Virus record (IMG/VR): IMGVR_UViG_2675903417_000002
Location: 1 to 36,620 of that record
Length of the DNA stretch: 36,620 bases
Origin: a virus
Lineage: Duplodnaviria; Heunggongvirae; Uroviricota; Caudoviricetes
Strand: one strand, 5' to 3'
Shown one piece after another: positions 5,125 through 28,265 of the stretch. How positions within the stretch are numbered: position 1 is the first letter of the stretch; every line of letters starts with the position of its first letter. A program made the position numbers and the translations under genes. Under the pieces are notes generated by a model that saw only the letters and a program-made list of their open reading frames with translations, was not told the DNA's origin and searched no databases.

Positions 5125-6173
5125 GAAATCGTCCCCAGTACCGCCAGTTCATTTTTTGCAATGGAGATATTGTCTGCCGGTGTAAGCAACTGATGGCTGT
5201 ATTCCCCGTTCGCACCGGAAATCGCCTCACTGATACGCGATACCTTCAGTTCTCCCTGCGGATAACCATCACGCAGCAGGAACGAACGCAACTCCGCGGT
5301 GATGGCAGCCCGTATTTCCGGTGTGTCCGGCGTCACGCGGATATGAAAATCCACCGTATGTGCCACCGGCCTGAACACATACAAATCAGAGCCTGCCACC
5401 GGGGCCAGTGGCCCGATATGTTGTCTTGCCGCCGTTTCCGTTGATTCTTCCGGAATGGGATTAATCAGGTCACTGCTGGCAATCATCACACCGACAGTTC
5501 CCGTTCCCATCCAGTGACGGTATGTCCATGCGCGGGTAATGCCGGGCACTTCTTTAGCCCAGACGACATAGTCCCCGTCAGCCCCGCCCTGCGGCGTCCA
5601 GTAATACCGCTCAATGACGCGGGCGCGCCACGTTTCCAGATCTTCAGTATCGAATCCGCCAGTCAGAGTATCTGCAACACCGGAAGACGGCAGACCATTC
5701 ACCGGCGTGACCAGGATTAATGCCGTACCGTCGTCAGCGTTACCGACCGCGCCTGCACTTGAGCAAGTGATCGGCACGCGCAGGACACCACCGGAGCTGG
5801 TTGCATCAGCAGTTGCCGTGTACTGAACCAGGTCATCGCGCTGAATCACGCTCCCGGCAGTCACCTTCAGGCCATCGCTGACACCTTCCCAGCGCATATA
5901 CCCGCTGGCAGCCGTGGCCCCCTTGCGCGGACACCGTTTCATCGCAGCATGTCGCGCCAGCCAGGACTCATCGCACAGGTCAGGCAGCATGTTCATTGCC
6001 AGATAATCGATGTAACCGTAAACCGTATGCAGCGCCGCCGCATACACCTTTGCCCGCACGTCTTCATCCATGCGCCGGAGCGTGTCGCTGACGTCCAGCC
6101 TGGCGAATAAATCGTTACGGAGCATACTGATATTTTCTGCCAGCGTCGGGCGCTGAAATTCACTGTCCGCCAT
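5115..6173 (-). CDS. Baseplate J-like protein (Mu gp47-like)
   Basis: 352-aa ORF; size and position typical of baseplate wedge J family. Confidence 0.65.
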
Positions 6174-7133: not shown

Positions 7134-8212
7134 CAGAACGGGTCCTCCTGTACTCTGGCTTTTTTCTTTTTCCGCGCGCCGGGGGCTTCGGGTTCAGGCA
7201 GATAAGCATCAGGCGGGCCGACACGGATTTCCGTCAGGGTGCCGTTCTGGTCCTGAGTAAACGTGACTTCCGAAACAAGCAGTTCGGTATTGTCGAAACC
7301 ACAGACCGGATCAAAGACAATCACCCGCTGGTTGGGCTGCCACAGCGTACCGTTACCCTGTCGCCAGCCCTGCACCACATAGGTGGTTTCATCCGTCCGC
7401 GCCGCCCGTTGTCGGGCTTCAAAGTCCGCACGGGCAATACAGCCTGCCCCCGTAGCCTGCCCTGTCTGCCTGATATACATCGGACGGTAACGGGCAATAA
7501 ATGCGTCCTCTGTGCGGGCCCGCAGCGCGGTGGTGGTGGCCTCACCGAAATCATCGTCGTTTCCGGCACGCTGCCCCGCCACCTGGTAAACAGAAAACCG
7601 CTCCCGGATACTCTTCTCCGTATCGCAGGAAAGGATGTTTTCCCCGAGTACCAGCGCAGTATGTGCCCGCGTTGAGCCAATACCACCAATCACCAGCCTG
7701 CCGTGCGGGTCGTCGTAAGCCAGTGCCTGCTGCTGACCGAGTATTTTGTTGATTACCTCAATCACCGTTTCACCGTGATCGGGCTGGACGTCAGGAATAA
7801 CACCCGACGGCGCACCGTTGTTCACCCCCTCAATGCCGAAAGGCGCAGCAAGCGCCTGCGCAATCTGTACCAGCGATCGTCCGTTAAACTGTGTCGGTTC
7901 GGCTGCACAGTCAATCAGGTCAGCAGTCAGACTACGTCCGGCAATACCGGTGCTGACCGAACGGGCATCGTAACGAACGGGGGTCGCCTCCACCCAGCCG
8001 GTGATCACCAGCTCATCACCAATCAGCACTTCCACTTTTGAACCATTTTTAATGCGCGGCTGAAGCGTGGTGATACCCTCATCTCCCGGCCACTGGCGGG
8101 TGATCTCCACGCTGAAATCCCGCGCCAGCCGTTCAATACCGGCACCGATGCGCACCGATGTCCAGCCATTCCACTCCCGGCCATTTACCCGTAGCGTGAC
8201 ATTGTCGTTCAT
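7133..8212 (-). CDS. Mu P-like (gp44) baseplate hub / tail protein
   Basis: 359-aa ORF between the DNA circulation protein and gpV-like gene. Confidence 0.55.
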   Translation of the reverse strand: MNDNVTLRVNGREWNGWTSVRIGAGIERLARDFSVEITRQWPGDEGITTLQPRIKNGSKVEVLIGDELVITGWVEATPVRYDARSVSTGIAGRSLTADLIDCAAEPTQFNGRSLVQIAQALAAPFGIEGVNNGAPSGVIPDVQPDHGETVIEVINKILGQQQALAYDDPHGRLVIGGIGSTRAHTALVLGENILSCDTEKSIRERFSVYQVAGQRAGNDDDFGEATTTALRARTEDAFIARYRPMYIRQTGQATGAGCIARADFEARQRAARTDETTYVVQGWRQGNGTLWQPNQRVIVFDPVCGFDNTELLVSEVTFTQDQNGTLTEIRVGPPDAYLPEPEAPGARKKKKARVQEDPF

Positions 8213-9537
8213 TGCACTGGCACCTTCAGAGGGATCACCGGCACAAAGCCGGGATGCGTAATGGCATTACGCCGGATAATGTCCGCGTCACGCGCCGCGT
8301 TATCAAACCAGGTCGCCGCCAGCACCAGCGCGGGTAAAACCTCATCCGGCGTGCGCTGAATGATCCGAGCAGACTGTTCAAGGCGCGTGTTGATATCCGC
8401 ATTCAGATCTGCTTTCACCCGGCGCAGCGCCAGAAACAGCGCATCACTGGTTGTACGGGACAACTCCTTATCAATTGCCATATTCAGTGTGTCGCGAATG
8501 TCGGTCAGTTCTTCCCACGTTGGCAGGTCAACCGTGTTTTTCACCGCCGGTGCATTGTTCAGCACCGGATGCGTGACGGCAGGCCAGCCGGAGCTCTGCG
8601 CGGGTGTTGTTGACTGCCCCACTGCGGCATTCTGCATCACCGCAGAAGTTGTTGGCGCAGGCAATCGGGTAACGGCATACGCCGCTTCGCTGATTGCAGT
8701 CGTACGAAGGGTGCTGGCAACCATGTTACGCTGCTGCGTCGCTGTGGCGGTGGTTTTACTGTCCATTTTCCAGACGCCGCGCGGTTGCAAATCGCTGCCG
8801 AGGCTGACACCAGAAAGCGTTTTGATCATGGTGACCAGGTCGCTGGCGTTACCATAAAGGCGTTTCCCGGTACGCCACATTTTCTGCACCTGCTCAACGA
8901 AATTTTTGCCTGACGATGGCGGCGGCAGAAGTACCGAGATATCCCCCTGCAACAGCCTGGCGGCATCCGATACGGCAGAATCCACCACTTTCATCGCATC
9001 AGAAACATACCCAAGCATTGTGCTGGCATTACCGACGACGTCGTTCTGCACAAAATCCGCCACGCCATCGATACTAAAACCGCTGAAGCTGTTACTGATG
9101 CAGTCATCCAGTGCAGAACAGGATGACATCAGCGCCTGCGCCGTCGCCGCACCTGATGTGGGGTAAGAGAGTTCTCCTGCTTCGACAAACTTCAGGTCAA
9201 AGCGGACAATACGTCCTTCACTCTTCGATGTGCTGACCCGAACTTCTCCGTCAACACAGACTTTCAGCTCACCGTAAGTCGGATGGACAAGCGTGCCGGG
9301 ACCGGGTTTATTCAGCGCGTCAATCAGGCGATCGCGCTGGTCAAAGCAGTCATCTCCCACCACATAAGCCGTGATGGACGGGCGGAAAGTAATTTTCCCC
9401 AGGTCTTCGGTATAGGGTTTGTCGCGGTTCGGGTATTCGTGCGTTTCCACACGACGGCCAGTTCCCGCACTTTCTTCTTCAACCTTAAACGGCACACCTC
9501 GAAATGACGCATCCTGAAGCCTGTCTTTCCACGTCAT
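8209..9537 (-). CDS. DNA circulation protein N-like (Mu gp43-like) tail protein
   Basis: 442-aa ORF immediately downstream of the tape measure region in a Mu-like tail module. Confidence 0.6.
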   Translation of the reverse strand: MTWKDRLQDASFRGVPFKVEEESAGTGRRVETHEYPNRDKPYTEDLGKITFRPSITAYVVGDDCFDQRDRLIDALNKPGPGTLVHPTYGELKVCVDGEVRVSTSKSEGRIVRFDLKFVEAGELSYPTSGAATAQALMSSCSALDDCISNSFSGFSIDGVADFVQNDVVGNASTMLGYVSDAMKVVDSAVSDAARLLQGDISVLLPPPSSGKNFVEQVQKMWRTGKRLYGNASDLVTMIKTLSGVSLGSDLQPRGVWKMDSKTTATATQQRNMVASTLRTTAISEAAYAVTRLPAPTTSAVMQNAAVGQSTTPAQSSGWPAVTHPVLNNAPAVKNTVDLPTWEELTDIRDTLNMAIDKELSRTTSDALFLALRRVKADLNADINTRLEQSARIIQRTPDEVLPALVLAATWFDNAARDADIIRRNAITHPGFVPVIPLKVPVQ

Positions 9538-9598: not shown

Positions 9599-10129
9599 TT
9601 AGCGAGTCAGAAACAACGAATCTTTATACTTTTGCTGTTGTTCATTTAAATACTTAGCTGTTTCATCGCTGGCAAATGGAAATATTACCGTATTTTTAGG
9701 CATGGTAATTTCTTTTTTGTCCAGCGTCAGAGTAAACATAGGAACATACTGAGCAGAGTAACGCACCGCAGAAACGAGCTCTAGTTTAGACTCTTCAATA
9801 ACACTTAAATTATCCAGGCTAACTTTCTCTTCATCTTTTTTCTTTGACGCATTTAAAGTTTTTATTACTTTATTTAATTTCCCCTGAAAATCCTCCTTAA
9901 AGTTTTCAGGATTGCCGTCGACAACAAGAATCTGTTCACCCTGATTATCTGGAAAAATAATCTTTGCACTTATCAATTTATTTTCTTTATAAACATCACC
10001 AAGTTTTATGGCTCCTCCAGATAACTGAATAATATGTTCATCTTTAAAGGAGATGTTGCCAGAGATTATGAGAGATGAAAAAATAGCCGCTGCTCCAAGA
10101 ATTACACTTGCTGTGATATAGCCTTTCAT
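9599..10129 (-). CDS. AT-rich moron: exported or membrane-anchored protein of unknown function
   Basis: 176-aa ORF with hydrophobic N-terminus (SVILGAAAIFSSLIISG), Lys/Glu-rich body; clearly lower GC than the flanking tail genes; own promoter-like and terminator signals. Confidence 0.6.
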   Translation of the reverse strand: MKGYITASVILGAAAIFSSLIISGNISFKDEHIIQLSGGAIKLGDVYKENKLISAKIIFPDNQGEQILVVDGNPENFKEDFQGKLNKVIKTLNASKKKDEEKVSLDNLSVIEESKLELVSAVRYSAQYVPMFTLTLDKKEITMPKNTVIFPFASDETAKYLNEQQQKYKDSLFLTR

Positions 10130-23879: not shown

Positions 23880-24206
23880 TTACTCCTTAGAACCACCAAA
23901 CTTATTACCGATTACTCTCATTGCAGCCCCACGAATAGCATCGACACCGATCAGCCCCACCCCACCACCAATGGCAACAGAAAGTGATTTAGGCCATCCG
24001 ACATACTCAAGAGCGGATGCAAAAGTCAGTGTCAGAGCGCCACAGAGCAAAATCTCGAGCGTTTTTCGCTTCCAGCCACCACCACCGCCAAAATAGGCAA
24101 TGCGCAAGCCAGCCATAACGATCGACATAATTACTGCGCCCAGCGGCGTGTCTCCACGCCACCAGCTCTGGACCAACTCCAGCCAGGTATTTGGGTTATG
24201 AGGCAT
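23880..24206 (-). CDS. Holin (lambda S-like class)
   Basis: Track ORF 23880..24263 trimmed to internal Met (MPHNPN...) because a terminator hairpin lies inside the longer version; TM segments and charged C-terminus. Confidence 0.65.
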   Translation of the reverse strand: MPHNPNTWLELVQSWWRGDTPLGAVIMSIVMAGLRIAYFGGGGGWKRKTLEILLCGALTLTFASALEYVGWPKSLSVAIGGGVGLIGVDAIRGAAMRVIGNKFGGSKE

Positions 24207-24252
24207 TTCGTCATCTCTCACCTCGCGATATTTGCGGGTACTGTGAAATAAA

Positions 24253-24278
24253 AAAGCCGCCAATTATTTGGCGGCTTT
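24253..24278 (-). terminator. Rho-independent terminator following the Q-to-holin moron
   Basis: 9-bp stem aaagccgcc/ggcggcttt, 8-nt loop, T-run on the minus strand. Confidence 0.55.
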
Positions 24279-24295
24279 CAATAAAAAAGAAAATG

Positions 24296-25081
24296 TTATC
24301 GGGGAAGGTGTTGCTTTGGTCCTTCCCAACTGAAGGAATTAAAAACTTTTTGGATTAAATTTTGCAACTTTGCCAAAGACTCTGTCGAAATATCTACTTC
24401 ACCATAATAGCCATCAGCCATAGTGCACCCAAATTTAGTTCCGAATAAGTTATTCAACATCAATGCCCCCTGAGGTGCAACAACATGAATATTATTTACA
24501 GGTTTGAGTTTTATTGGCTTTGGTTCTTTCTCTGCACCAAGCCCACGAACTCTGTCTTCCATGTGTTGAGCTGAATTCCTTACCTTTCTTAAATCCGGAA
24601 AGTCTTTAGAAAGCTGTTCATGCAATTTTTTAATGTTCTCTGGCGCGCCATTTTCTTTTGAAATTACCTTTAAAAATTTATCAATAGCATCCAAAGCGTA
24701 GAGAAATGATTTTGCATGTAAGAAGATCAATCTGTGTTGATGAGCCAACGGATATTCACCGTTATTCCATTTTTCTCTTTTTAGACGTAGCTCGACCTCT
24801 GAAAAAACCTGTTCTGAATATTCATAAGGTTGATAACCAAACTCTTTACGAACCAGCATTTCCAGTGCTTGTCGTTTCTGTACATCAGCTTGCCATGTCT
24901 GAGAAATATTATCGAATTTACTGTTATTCTTAGTTCTTTCCTGTTCGAATAAATTTAATGCTACATTAGCATCATAAAATGCAGTTTCTAAATGGGATAA
25001 TAAGTTATTAAACGTCCATTCTAACTCTCTGTTTTCAAACTTAAGATTACTGCCTGGCTTGATTAACTCAAAAACATACAT
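24296..25081 (-). CDS. AT-rich moron protein of unknown function; candidate HEPN-like (Rx4H) toxin or defence protein
   Basis: 261-aa ORF in the Q-to-holin slot; low GC versus neighbours; motif RNSAQH fits Rx4-6H; ATG 25079-25081 with AGGGG RBS; own terminator. Confidence 0.6.
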   Translation of the reverse strand: MYVFELIKPGSNLKFENRELEWTFNNLLSHLETAFYDANVALNLFEQERTKNNSKFDNISQTWQADVQKRQALEMLVRKEFGYQPYEYSEQVFSEVELRLKREKWNNGEYPLAHQHRLIFLHAKSFLYALDAIDKFLKVISKENGAPENIKKLHEQLSKDFPDLRKVRNSAQHMEDRVRGLGAEKEPKPIKLKPVNNIHVVAPQGALMLNNLFGTKFGCTMADGYYGEVDISTESLAKLQNLIQKVFNSFSWEGPKQHLPR

Positions 25082-25155
25082 TTTTTCGACCCCTAGTTGT
25101 ATGGTCGAATAATTATATTACTAATTAATACCGTCATTCTGTTTTTACACAATAA

Positions 25156-25176
25156 AAAACCCGCTCAATGGCGAGT
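25156..25176 (-). terminator. Possible tR'-like weak terminator downstream of the late promoter
   Basis: 5-bp stem with one G-U pair followed by T6 on the minus strand. Confidence 0.3.
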
Positions 25177-25223
25177 TCTTGAAGGTTATCAACAGCAGAT
25201 ACATAAAGCCCATCGTTGAGGAA

Positions 25224-25252
25224 ATCTTATCCAGATTTTTTGAAAAATGCAA
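25224..25252 (-). promoter_or_regulatory. Candidate late promoter PR' (TTGCAT - 17 bp - TAAGAT)
   Basis: Hexamers read on the minus strand just downstream of the Q gene stop. Confidence 0.45.
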
Positions 25253-25283: not shown

Positions 25284-26036
25284 TTATCTTGTCACCTTTC
25301 TCAATTGTGTCTCTGCATATGCTTCTTCCTGCCAGCACTTTGTAACCAGTTTATCAATGACATCTGCATATCCTTTGTACCACTGATAATCCGTCAGGTC
25401 TGGTACCAGCTTCTGGACATGATTCCGCGCCAGTGTGGTTGGTAAACGGCTAAATCGGTTTCCATTGCAACGCCCACAAATCTTATAAACAGGCGTGCCA
25501 TGAAGCCGGGTCCTTTTTTCATCCAGGACAATACCTTTACCCTTACACCCTCTGCACGCTGTGCTGACTTCTCCCTTACCATGACAATGCTGACATAGTT
25601 CCTTCACCCACTCTTCCTTGATAACAGATTCCCCGCTTCTGGAGTGTTTCACCACCTCGCGCAATACATTATGAAATCCAGTACCAGCACAATGCTCACA
25701 GCGAGCCTTACTTGCCGCAGACCTGGAATAATCAGCAAAGGCAAAATTCACAAGGTAAGGGATGATCTGTAACCGGATTTCTTCACTCAATTTGTTCAAT
25801 GTCGGGTTATCCAGTGCCATCGCGTAATTGAGCAGACCTTCAATCGCAAACTGAGGATCCTGAACACCAACTTTTGCCAGGAATAAGGCAAACCCAAGCG
25901 GTGCTTTCGACTGCACCATCCCCTGCGCAGCCATCACATCTGTAATTGTTAAACCACCCGAGCCTGTCGCCGGTGCGTCATCACTCAATTTTGGAGATTT
26001 TGGGGAGTAATATTTTGGTAAAGCTTCAAGGTTCAT
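25284..26036 (-). CDS. Late-gene antitermination protein Q
   Basis: 250-aa ORF with Cys-rich zinc-binding region (CEHCAGTG...CQHCHGKG...CRGCKGKG), positioned just upstream of the lysis genes. Confidence 0.75.
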   Translation of the reverse strand: MNLEALPKYYSPKSPKLSDDAPATGSGGLTITDVMAAQGMVQSKAPLGFALFLAKVGVQDPQFAIEGLLNYAMALDNPTLNKLSEEIRLQIIPYLVNFAFADYSRSAASKARCEHCAGTGFHNVLREVVKHSRSGESVIKEEWVKELCQHCHGKGEVSTACRGCKGKGIVLDEKRTRLHGTPVYKICGRCNGNRFSRLPTTLARNHVQKLVPDLTDYQWYKGYADVIDKLVTKCWQEEAYAETQLRKVTR

Positions 26037-26049
26037 GCTCGTTCTCCAC

Positions 26050-27045
26050 TTACGCCAGTACGCCTATTGCCAGCGCACGATCGATAAAACGAAATATCAG
26101 CTCCAGCTGGGAGCCATACTTCTCTTCAAATGCCACGGTATCCGCATGCAGCTCGTCGTGATGCTTTCTGCACAAAGGCAACACAAAGAGGTCATGCGCT
26201 TTTGTACCCATCCCACCCTGACCGTGGCCTATCAGGTGGTGGGGATCATCAGCAGGCTTTCCACAACATGCACACGGCTGTGTCTTAACCCAGCGCGTGT
26301 ACTTTTCATTAACCCAGCGGCGACGTTTTGGGCGTAACATAAAAGACTCCGGCGACTCCGGATCCACTTTCAGCGCCAGCACCTTTTTCGCCTTATCCTG
26401 GATGATGCTGGTGGCAGGAACCGAAGGCACAAGGTCACTTTCCCGGGTGACAGACGGCACAACAGGCTTCGGTAATCTCAGTGCCTTACGGGCTGCACTT
26501 TCCGGTAAGGCATCCGCCAGGTCATTACGAATCAGCCACCAGCACAGTTCCGGCATTGTCACAACGTGACTGTCATCAAAACCGAGATCCCGACGCACAA
26601 CAGACAACACCCAGCGGGCACAGTTATCCGTTGCCATTGATTCCAGCCGTTCCGTGAACTGATCGCGCAGCTGGTTATCGCAGTGCCAGCACAGACGGAT
26701 CGCGCCCGGCGCGTGTCGCATTGTGGTCATGTTCTCGCTGTGCCAGTCGGAATGAGGCCACTGACAGCCCTTTTCACGAAGTAACCAGCTTTCAAGACAT
26801 TCCACGCCACCAGCACGACGGATCACTGCCTCATTGCAGAACACGGCTCGAACGGCAGGATCATCCGCCAGCGGTTGTGATGCCGCGGGAACGGCACCAC
26901 TGGCGAAAGATGAATAACGTTCCGGCTCAGGCTCCAGCAGGACACGCCCCTGCATAAACAGGGGCATCAGCTCTGAACCGGGTCTGAACAATACGATCCC
27001 CATACGCGGGGCTATTTCAGGGGTCAGTAGTGCTCTCACGGTCAC
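26050..27045 (-). CDS. DUF968 / YdfU-like protein
   Basis: 331-aa ORF with C-terminal Cys/His cluster (CACCGKPADDPHHLIGHGQGG...CRKHHDELH); resemblance to Qin prophage YdfU is from memory. Confidence 0.55.
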   Translation of the reverse strand: MTVRALLTPEIAPRMGIVLFRPGSELMPLFMQGRVLLEPEPERYSSFASGAVPAASQPLADDPAVRAVFCNEAVIRRAGGVECLESWLLREKGCQWPHSDWHSENMTTMRHAPGAIRLCWHCDNQLRDQFTERLESMATDNCARWVLSVVRRDLGFDDSHVVTMPELCWWLIRNDLADALPESAARKALRLPKPVVPSVTRESDLVPSVPATSIIQDKAKKVLALKVDPESPESFMLRPKRRRWVNEKYTRWVKTQPCACCGKPADDPHHLIGHGQGGMGTKAHDLFVLPLCRKHHDELHADTVAFEEKYGSQLELIFRFIDRALAIGVLA

Positions 27046-27046
27046 C

Positions 27047-27856
27047 TCAATGAACGGTATCGAGCAGCTTTAACAGCTCAGGGAATCGGGATTCGAAGAA
27101 ATGCGGCTGCGTCTCGCGCGGATTTGCAGGACTGGTGATGTTCTTGCCGAACATGCAGCCTTTCGCTGTCAGCGACCAGAATTTTTTGATGTTGTTAATC
27201 GCGGTACGGCTGTATCGTTCGCGCTGCTCGACGATCCCCAGCTTCACCATCTGGTGATATGCCTGATTAGCCGTCAGGCGGATACCATACTGCTTCAGCA
27301 GTGCACTCAGTGACAGCGTAGGGCGACTTGAGCCATCGGGTGCATCGGCAGGAGCATCAATTGCATAGCGCGGAGCCAGATTCGGTAAGCCAACAGCCTC
27401 CTGGAGTTTCTGACAAGCCCCAAGCACAGATGAGTTAGACAGGTTTAATTCCCGACGCATAAAGTCCAGCAGAATCACACCAGCCTGCATCTTGTCAGCA
27501 GCCTGCCCGGATAATTTTTCCGGTGCGCTGGTTACCATATCGAAAGTACGGATCACCTTCAGATGGAATGACGGGCTGATCCACATTGCATAGGCATACA
27601 CCAGTTCCTTGCAGACATACGTTCCCTGGTTATTTCCGCCATTAATGACGCTAACTGGTTGATTTTGTTCCAGAGGCGGAATTCCACCCTCGGTGAAAAG
27701 TTGTTCAATCAATTCACAGGTTTGCTTATTGGAGAGCCAGTATTTCGGGCGGTTTTTTTGTTCTCCCCCGGCTGCCCTGTGCAGATCGTTCAGGCTGTAA
27801 CGCCCATAAGCATCACGACGAACTTCAATACCATCAATGACCATCAGATTATTCAT
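27047..27856 (-). CDS. KilA-N domain antirepressor-like protein
   Basis: KilA-N signature (MVIDGIEVRRDAYGRYSLNDLH ... YAYAMWISPSFHLKV); start set at Met preceded by GAGGAG RBS (track ORF extends to 27889). Confidence 0.7.
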   Translation of the reverse strand: MNNLMVIDGIEVRRDAYGRYSLNDLHRAAGGEQKNRPKYWLSNKQTCELIEQLFTEGGIPPLEQNQPVSVINGGNNQGTYVCKELVYAYAMWISPSFHLKVIRTFDMVTSAPEKLSGQAADKMQAGVILLDFMRRELNLSNSSVLGACQKLQEAVGLPNLAPRYAIDAPADAPDGSSRPTLSLSALLKQYGIRLTANQAYHQMVKLGIVEQRERYSRTAINNIKKFWSLTAKGCMFGKNITSPANPRETQPHFFESRFPELLKLLDTVH

Positions 27857-27875
27857 ACTTCGTTTCTCCTCTTGC

Positions 27876-28265
27876 TCAGGCGGCTGCACCCGCCGTTTTC
27901 TCGTACTTACTGATAGTGATCTCGACCTTCCCTTCCGGGATAACCGGTCCCCACTCCACCAGCATTCTTTTCACCTGACTGTCGTCTTCCCACACACCCG
28001 CGTGGGTCAGGGCGTCAAACAGCGCCTTGTTATAGTTGTCCAGATCGCGGATCCGGTTATCCGGAGGAAACAACACGATCTCCACTGAAGCAGGTGCCGA
28101 CGTTGGTTTCGGCAGACGACGTAACTGCTCAACTATTGCTGCGCACGCCGCGCTCTGGAATTTTCGCCCCGCCGCGCTTATCAGGCTCTTACCAGCAAAC
28201 GCCCCTTTGTTGGGGTGTCGCCAGTACGTGTTCACGCTGGGCGGAAAAGGCAGGATCAGCTTCAT
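27876..28265 (-). CDS. rusA: RusA-family Holliday junction resolvase
   Basis: 129-aa ORF; conserved RusA core (DLDNYNKALFDALTHAGVWEDDSQV) aligns with E. coli RusA as recalled. Confidence 0.8.
   Translation of the reverse strand: MKLILPFPPSVNTYWRHPNKGAFAGKSLISAAGRKFQSAACAAIVEQLRRLPKPTSAPASVEIVLFPPDNRIRDLDNYNKALFDALTHAGVWEDDSQVKRMLVEWGPVIPEGKVEITISKYEKTAGAAA

Follow-up and report, generated by a model that had tools for sequence, protein, structure and literature searches.

A low-GC cargo gene between the Q antiterminator and holin genes of a Caudoviricetes genome encodes a candidate solo HEPN-like protein with a conserved Rx4H motif

What does a single AT-rich gene do between the Q antiterminator and the holin of a lambdoid late operon, the slot best known for toxins such as Stx? 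The question is raised by a 36,620-nucleotide stretch of viral DNA (Caudoviricetes; IMG/VR record IMGVR_UViG_2675903417_000002, positions 1 to 36,620; hereafter the window), in which this slot holds one gene for a protein of 261 amino acids (aa) that belongs to the PHROG 5322 family. Its product has an Rx4H motif that is almost invariant among its relatives, a confidently predicted helical fold and no partner gene. On the motif, the predicted model and the analogy with HepS of Salmonella and Tha of S. aureus, we give about even chances to the view that it is a solo HEPN-like abortive-infection ribonuclease (RNase) of a new family. The two features on which this view centers are:

24296..25081, minus strand: cargo open reading frame (ORF), ATG start, 261 aa, PHROG 5322 family, predicted solo HEPN-like protein (ORF call)
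24563..24580 (read 24580->24563), minus strand: codons of R168-N-S-A-Q-H173, the Rx4H motif (sequence; family conservation)

A preliminary description of the window, made from its letters without database searches, had pointed to the peptide RKVRNSAQH as fitting the Rx4-6H catalytic motif of HEPN RNases. The peptide is present, and the Rx4H element within it is R168-N-S-A-Q-H173; the first arginine of the peptide, R165, gives Rx7H instead and is only 72% conserved. In a single protein, Rx4-6H is no better than chance, occurring in 67% of shuffles of the cargo protein (5% for the narrower R[NDH]x3H), and a second match in the same protein, R117..H122, is not conserved. It is because of its conservation that the motif at R168 is real. 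Among 150 relatives with 30-67% identity to the query, both R168 and H173 are 98% conserved, H173 being the only conserved histidine of the eight in the protein and R168 its best-conserved arginine. Residue 169 is N in 82% of these sequences and otherwise D, while a more diverged set of 83 sequences has N in 73% and D in 27%. The residues that come after the motif, E175, D176 and R177, are 85-97% conserved (ranges across two alignments). The most conserved stretch of the protein is segment 161-182; variation peaks in residues 47-88 and 143-160, where the indels lie. Upstream of the motif, the 94% conserved D131 is followed four residues later by K or R (86% at position 135), forming Dx3[KR] in helix 112-142. 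HEPN proteins are described as having Rx4-6H, a polar N, D or H after the arginine, and an upstream acidic residue in Ex3[KR] (PMC3710099). As judged from the alignments, the family has both the conserved Rx4-6H and the polar residue that mark the HEPN superfamily, with D, not E, as the upstream acidic residue. Its local pattern, L-x-x-[IV]-R-N-x3-H-x3-R, also resembles that of Abi_2.

The structure predicted by AlphaFold2 had the same layout with an alignment of 35 sequences (predicted local distance difference test score, pLDDT, 88; predicted template modelling score, pTM, 0.80) and with one of 150 sequences (pLDDT 97.2, pTM 0.90). In this model, short N-terminal strands precede a very long helix (18-81), along which helices 89-106 and 112-142 run back; helix 149-160 and a kink at P162 lead to helices 164-172 and 174-178, which hold the motif, and the chain ends with a beta-rich stretch (181-230), helix 233-248 and a last strand. 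The predicted order, in which the motif closes a helical element and is followed by a beta insert and then a terminal helix, is compatible with the description in the HEPN survey; a HEPN domain is an up-down bundle of four helices whose motif closes the third, ahead of the loop that leads to the fourth. The preliminary description had looked to structure prediction and fold comparison for support. The former provided this confident helical model, but Foldseek, used with the earlier model (pLDDT 88), returned nothing significant in PDB or BFVD, and the cargo fold matches generic helical bundles equally well as HEPN. Mean-field direct-coupling analysis of 332 sequences, applied to helix packing and active-site proximity, gave noisy output that was unusable.

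A much shorter homologue helps to separate the parts of the protein. It is the 204-aa gp37 of Marinitoga phage MPV1 (locus L012, 3911-4525), a temperate phage of Thermotogota, where its neighbours are tape-measure and tail genes. With the cargo protein it has only the core in common (FPNLRYVRNSIAHFEDR; hhalign probability 97%); it keeps the motif as RNSIAH and lacks about 55 N-terminal residues, which suggests that the long helical extension is an accessory part. The same short protein was set aside as a bridge query, as it yielded only 3 close relatives.

The preliminary description had also proposed an undescribed single-gene module. With respect to the single gene, this stands. Among 55 species-level loci there is no recurrent neighbour family (maximum 4 of 55) and no conserved adjacent antitoxin gene, as a type II toxin-antitoxin module would need. 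On the mobilisable Psychrobacter plasmid pA53P1 (4168 bp), a homologue with 48% identity (L137 1356-2207) is the sole cargo besides Rep, relaxase and MobC. The cargo gene is self-sufficient, without a conserved partner. Plasmid pA53P1 is the family's minimal natural context.

The family is widespread and highly mobile, with a patchy distribution. Its hosts include Gamma-, Beta-, Delta-, Alpha- and Epsilonproteobacteria and, for a few members, Bacteroidota and Acidobacteriota. A word-indexed search yielded 375 relatives, and an exhaustive profile search yielded 986 clusters at 50% identity (E<=1e-3); the best 150 of these 986 clusters are mostly 250-280 aa long, in one full-length match, apart from a few truncated sequences. 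In E. coli, the family was found in 48 of 5426 complete genomes, with all copies chromosomal; 23 of them have a cassette at least 99% identical to that of the window, and the other 25 have a variant of ~68% nucleotide identity.

The surroundings of the relatives bear on the defence or toxin role that had been suggested for the gene, and they agree with it to the extent that relatives lie beside Abi, toxin-antitoxin and restriction-modification genes and on mobile elements. In Pseudomonas, the homologue adjoins HEPN_AbiU2 and an AAA_21/RloB pair in a Toprim/DUF927 island; the Vibrio parahaemolyticus copy belongs to what appears to be an integron cassette array, which also contains an AbiV-family gene ~4 kb away. 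Aeromonas copies are located in integrase/VapE islands with a SIR2-like gene, and those on small Rep3 plasmids of Acinetobacter are beside an Abi_2 gene and toxin-antitoxin pairs. The Chromobacterium homologue stands alone between housekeeping operons. Across 145 neighbour proteins of the species-level loci, PADLOC and Pfam identified restriction-modification methyltransferases, HipA, MNT-type nucleotidyltransferases, insertion sequence elements and housekeeping genes. A per-locus statistic of defence enrichment was given up, not being derivable from this mixed scan; the defence association of the neighbourhoods is suggestive and not quantified. As a separate observation, the Vibrio copy (L008 ~7950-8000) and the Aeromonas copies (L009/L010) have the upstream sequence GCGTTGCTCACACCTTAA in common. 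It may be an attC remnant, hinting that the Aeromonas copy came from an integron cassette.

The preliminary description could name no homologue, and this was borne out. The cargo protein has no match in Pfam, NCBIfam or PADLOC (PADLOC-DB v2.0.0: 0 families at E<=10), its sole library match is PHROG 5322, annotated as 'unknown function', and no paper was found that names the family by accession or PHROG number, or by plasmid name. The family is therefore unnamed in these three databases and in PHROGs, and was not found in the searchable literature.

Several results weigh against a HEPN-type defence protein. Pfam hmmscan of 83 diverse members found no HEPN family at E<=10, PDB sequence-profile searches with two family alignments were empty, and hhalign was negative against single AbiV, AbiU2 and Abi_2 sequences and gave a probability of 0.3% against a 51-sequence AbiU2 profile. 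The match to a HEPN or Abi profile that the preliminary description had hoped for was thus not obtained. That D131, K135, N39 and N43 lie near R168 and H173 is a presumption. The neighbours in species-representative genomes are mixed and include housekeeping genes. In addition, the cassette promoter (see below) has a poor -35 and the gene sits inside a late operon, so that most of its expression could be late, in the lytic cycle. Still, HEPN families diverge so strongly from one another that the negative profile searches do not refute the HEPN assignment, which rests on the motif signature and the compatible predicted fold.

The same negative results could be read in another way: the conserved R/H/E/D cluster on the helical bundle might be a ligand- or protein-binding site of a protein that is not a nuclease and has an accessory role, for instance in anti-defence, in regulation or as the sensor of a partner whose gene lies elsewhere. 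The absence of profile-level homology to HEPN or any enzyme family and the equally good match of the fold to generic helical bundles agree with such a role, as does the fact that some HEPN-clan domains are non-catalytic substrate-binding modules (PMC3710099). Such non-catalytic domains, however, typically lose Rx4-6H (PMC3710099), whereas here R and H are 98% conserved and the arginine is followed by N or D. Moreover, a partner acting in trans is unlikely, since a 4.2-kb plasmid has the gene as its sole cargo and elsewhere it looks like a single integron cassette. We regard the non-nuclease explanation as unlikely.

The cassette in its slot is delimited as follows. The genes on either side are:

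25284..26036, minus strand: Q antiterminator gene, upstream slot boundary (PF03589 Antiterm, E 6.8e-54; RefSeq 'antitermination protein Q')
23880..24206, minus strand (RefSeq start; the ORF spans 23880..24263): lambda-family holin, downstream slot boundary (PF05106, E 4e-25)

Endolysin and Rz-like genes come after the holin. The preliminary description of an AT-rich gene at 24296-25081 between Q and holin was confirmed, the GC content being 0.358 for the cargo ORF, 0.467 for Q, 0.523 for the holin and 0.508 for the whole window. When the window is set against E. coli prophages that have its Q or its holin module but other cargo, the limits of the insert fall at 25154 and ~24226-24261. Homology to Q modules with other cargo spans the tR'-like terminator and ends at 25154, and homology to holin modules without PHROG 5322 cargo ends at ~24226-24261; this assigns the tR'-like terminator to the Q module and the downstream one to the cargo. 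That the slot holds variable cargo, as had been supposed, is evident from E. coli prophages with the same Q and different genes there. One of them (L013 2046-2249) has a 67-aa hypothetical protein, and a second (L014 295-2350) has 141-aa and 67-aa hypothetical proteins and a DNA methyltransferase. The slot between Q and holin is a general cargo exchange point. In the second of these prophages, a second copy of the tR'-like terminator (L014 1824-1847) was noted beside the alternative cargo.

The position is recurrent in viral genomes. Among 41 non-redundant IMG/VR loci, about 30-36 have a Q-type antiterminator gene next to the homologue on its upstream side, drawn from at least three unrelated families (PF03589 15, PF06323 9, PF06530 6, and DUF1133 in a further 6). 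The two downstream neighbours include 45 holin-family matches (PF16931 22, PF05449 19, others 4), PF16931 and PF05449 often being adjacent genes of one locus. The same Q-cargo-holin arrangement was also observed in Klebsiella, Citrobacter and a second E. coli variant.

The regulatory elements found around the ORF, all on the minus strand, are as follows:

25212..25252, minus strand: putative PR'-like late promoter, -35 TTGCAT 25252->25247, 17-nt spacer, -10 TAAGAT 25229->25224, with AACGAT 25217->25212 in the initial transcribed region (sequence reading)
25155..25180 (25180->25155), minus strand: tR'-like intrinsic terminator of the Q module, not of the cargo (10-bp stem, 4 GC pairs, T-run)
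25112..25141, minus strand: cassette promoter-like element, -10 TATAAT 25117->25112, weak -35-like CAGAAT 25141->25136, 18-nt spacer (sequence)
25085..25109, minus strand: TTCGACC-11 nt-GGTCGAA, an inverted repeat or hairpin of the 5' leader that begins directly past the -10, ends 4 nt short of the ATG and covers the GGGG Shine-Dalgarno-like bases (RNAfold -8.9 kcal/mol)
24252..24279 (24279->24252), minus strand: cassette intrinsic terminator, 17 nt past the stop codon (12-bp stem, 6 GC pairs, T-run)

The PR'-like promoter and the weak tR'-like hairpin had been noted upstream of the gene in the preliminary description, and both are reasonable. The sequence CTCAACGATGGGC comes after TTGCAT-17 nt-TAAGAT, between the Q stop codon and the upstream hairpin. 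The region 25212..25252 presumably corresponds to a lambda PR' promoter with its sigma-dependent pause element, which it resembles. A consensus promoter scan did not list it, since it matches at only 3 of 6 and 4 of 6 positions, and its PR'-like identity is putative. Taken together, 24252-25150 is an insulated moron cassette, consisting of a promoter-like -10, a short leader, the ORF and a terminator, inserted right after tR' in the leader of the late operon of an E. coli prophage with lambdoid regulation. It has the features expected of lambdoid morons, namely deviant GC (~0.35 vs 0.51), variable slot occupancy, and a conserved -10 and terminator, with the promoter being a predicted one.

The downstream terminator had been correctly recognized at 24253-24278 as the gene's own, and an equivalent hairpin lies 16-21 nt past the stop codon in nearly all prophage copies, with stems that covary among them (GGCTGCC/GGCGGCC, GGCTACC/GGTAGCC, GGCCGC/GCGGCC, GCCGCC/GGCGGC). 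Terminator-like hairpins within 150 nt were found at 43 of 92 loci, compared with 53 of 920 random control windows. Because such a terminator cannot stop Q-modified polymerase, its conservation between cargo and holin argues for Q-independent transcription in the lysogen. The best explanation appears to be that the cassette is transcribed without Q in the lysogen and that the terminator blocks read-through into the lysis genes. At the other end, the TAATATAAT block, which in the window is the TATAAT at 25117->25112, lies ~36 nt before the ATG, with constant spacing, in 15 of 21 diverged prophage copies. The conserved -10 TATAAT, combined with the downstream terminator, suggests transcription independent of Q, though the -35 is weak.

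An RNase of HEPN type might also serve the phage's own lytic cycle, being made late from PR' by Q antitermination and acting in host RNA degradation, in competitor exclusion during lytic growth or in lysis timing. This would suit the orientation of the ORF, which follows PR'/tR' directly and runs with the late operon, as well as the frequent Q genes upstream and holin-family matches downstream in viral loci and the weak -35 of the cassette promoter. Yet not all members belong to phages, some being carried by small plasmids, by integrase islands or by an apparent integron array and others being lone chromosomal genes; the conserved terminator past the gene would have no effect on Q-modified polymerase, which implies that transcription does not depend on Q; and no close homologue was found in cultured phages in a collection of 50,697 records. 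We consider a lytic-cycle function quite improbable.

The leader repeat offers a possible further layer of control. On 21 diverged prophage loci, 80% of the cells at its positions pair, compared with 26-50% in slid controls. Compensatory changes were found at two or three pairs, with alignment pairs 24-49 (UA 12, CG 7, UG 2) and 26-47 covarying. RNAalifold predicted no consensus structure for the hairpin on these 21 loci. There is moderate support, from comparison of sequences, for conservation of the leader hairpin as a structure. A transcript started ~7 nt after the -10 would lose the 5' arm, and the stem could therefore form on read-through (late) transcripts only. This resembles the 'fold-back inhibition' of externally initiated transcripts known from IS10. 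The predicted accessibility of the ribosome-binding site is 0.34 on read-through and 0.46 on own-promoter transcripts, a modest difference, and the repeat could equally be a DNA operator. In view of this modest difference and the RNAalifold result, the hairpin was not made part of the core claim.

The gene might also encode an addiction or stabilisation toxin for mobile elements, which would act by post-segregational killing on loss of the prophage or plasmid and be held in check by an unrecognised antitoxin, either a small RNA or the leader element itself. Homologues do occur on very small plasmids beside toxin-antitoxin genes, HEPN toxins are common in toxin-antitoxin modules, and the repeat is conserved in prophage copies. 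The leader element, however, is confined to enterobacterial prophage copies, and the Pseudomonas, Vibrio, Aeromonas and Chromobacterium copies lack it; a search of the cassette region against Rfam gave no RNA family; and no neighbouring ORF is conserved. We give this explanation very little credence.

The slot also contains tRNA genes in some relatives. In Klebsiella-type prophages, tRNA-Thr(UGU), or tRNA-Asn(GUU) together with tRNA-Arg(UCU), is encoded in the interval from Q to the cargo, ~220 bp ahead of the homologue (L003-L006 ~7624-7781; L098, L099, L100 and L103 ~5690-5793). There are HEPN anticodon nucleases, and tRNAs are frequent targets of HEPN defence nucleases, a loss for which tRNAs of the phage can compensate. 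A tRNA link was nonetheless dropped as a defining feature, since it holds for only 4 of the 41 non-redundant viral loci and the four Klebsiella loci L003-L006, and the window has none.

To return to the proposed solo HEPN-like RNase, its mode of action can be outlined by analogy. The product would be a cytoplasmic single-gene HEPN-type effector, in which a helical bundle with the R168-N-x3-H173 site, backed by D131-x3-K135 and E175-D176-R177, is joined to a variable helical extension and a small conserved beta domain. Low-level transcription of the cassette in the lysogen would supply the protein, which would be held as an inactive oligomer until a component of a superinfecting phage triggered a rearrangement; the sensing surface may be formed by the hypervariable segments 47-88 and 143-160. 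As in other HEPN proteins, two or more copies would then pair their Rx4H motifs into a metal-independent RNase site, and cleavage of tRNA or messenger RNA would stop both the infected cell and the phage, so that the infection is aborted. In this scheme the make-up of the cassette, the motif conservation, the confident model, the lack of a partner gene, the mobility and the defence genes among the neighbours are observed, whereas HEPN homology, RNase chemistry, oligomerisation, lysogen expression, phage triggering and the abortive outcome are inferred.

The working model for this scheme is HepS from the Gifsy-1 prophage of Salmonella, a resting tetramer that is activated by siphovirus tail-tip proteins and cuts tRNA anticodon loops (PMC13043305). 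HepS, too, is a single HEPN protein carried as prophage cargo with a canonical Rx4H and no partner or inhibitor gene, and we would expect the cargo protein to share its behavior (non-toxic at rest, resting oligomer, activation by a phage protein, tRNA cutting). The two differ in having no detectable sequence relationship; PDB profile searches gave no HEPN chain, the presence of HepS in that 2026 copy being unchecked. The second comparison is with Tha, a solo HEPN abortive-infection RNase of S. aureus prophages, whose forms Tha-1 and Tha-2 are activated by minor tail proteins and have the motif RNSIMH (PMC11087260). Both Tha and the cargo protein would need a means of avoiding self-activation on prophage induction. 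In contrast to the cargo protein, Tha is 301 aa long, its C-terminal HEPN domain is detected by HHpred, and it occurs in Gram-positive hosts at another genomic position. It also has a dedicated inhibitor, Ith, in an antisense operon, whereas no inhibitor gene was seen beside the cargo ORF. With HepS (PMC13043305) and Tha (PMC11087260) on record, the kind of module proposed in the preliminary description, a solo HEPN abortive-infection protein as prophage cargo, is already known; what would be new is this family, which has a distinct architecture and an unusually consistent home between Q and holin.

Other known systems were compared as well. Vpc_cass2 (PDB 3jrt) was placed in the KNTase_C clan by its authors (PMC3548836), whereas the HEPN survey (PMC3710099) enters it under 'Integron cassette HEPN, Rx4-6H conserved'. 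It has 166 aa compared with 261 aa, is 13% identical over aligned residues, and is without the beta domain and the long helical extension of the cargo protein. AbiU2, AbiD/F (Abi_2) and AbiV are likewise abortive-infection HEPN genes of similar size that encode single or nearly single proteins, and such genes lie directly beside relatives of the cargo gene in Pseudomonas and on Acinetobacter plasmids and ~4 kb off in the Vibrio array; the hhalign probability with AbiU2 and the Pfam scan given above separate them from the family. Morons between Q and S of lambdoid phages, such as stx, share with the cargo gene the slot after PR'/tR', low GC, variable occupancy and, in some relatives, tRNA genes in the slot. 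The present cargo differs from the stx type in having its own conserved -10 and terminator, and its product is predicted to be a cytoplasmic protein with a nuclease-type motif and not a secreted toxin.

A bolder proposal, possible though doubtful, extends this to the whole family. PHROG 5322 would then be a large unrecognised clade of solo HEPN abortive-infection RNases with a new architecture, in which the catalytic bundle is accompanied by a conserved beta domain and by a hypervariable helical extension that senses the phage. Prophage late-operon leaders, integrons, satellites and mini-plasmids would exchange it as an insulated promoter-ORF-terminator cassette, with the leader repeat silencing translation of Q-dependent read-through transcripts and so sparing the phage's own lytic cycle.

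If the HEPN reading is true, about 1000 clusters of 'hypothetical protein' would gain a function, among them those found in about 1% of complete E. coli genomes and on many mobile elements of Klebsiella, Citrobacter, Enterobacter, Acinetobacter, Vibrio and Pseudomonas. The family could be added to defence-annotation tools, which currently miss it, and the slot between Q and holin would become a recurrent home of defence cargo besides its toxins. A third independent example would also be available for phage sensing by one-protein HEPN systems and for the ways in which prophages avoid self-activation. The cassette is small and self-contained, and hence easy to test.

Two further observations were made in the window. 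Directly upstream of Q lie genes for a DUF968 protein with an HNH-like C-terminus (26050-27045, minus strand) and a KilA-N protein (27047-27889, minus strand), and the DUF968-Q pair recurs ahead of the cargo in E. coli, Citrobacter and Leclercia prophages. Far from the lysis genes, a 176-aa ORF with no Pfam match (9599-10129, minus strand) is located between the DNA-circularisation gene (8209-9537) and the next tail-module genes. In the closely related prophage L129, this position is taken by another gene, which encodes an OB-fold protein and runs on the opposite strand, so that 9599-10129 may mark a further site of variable cargo, within the tail module.

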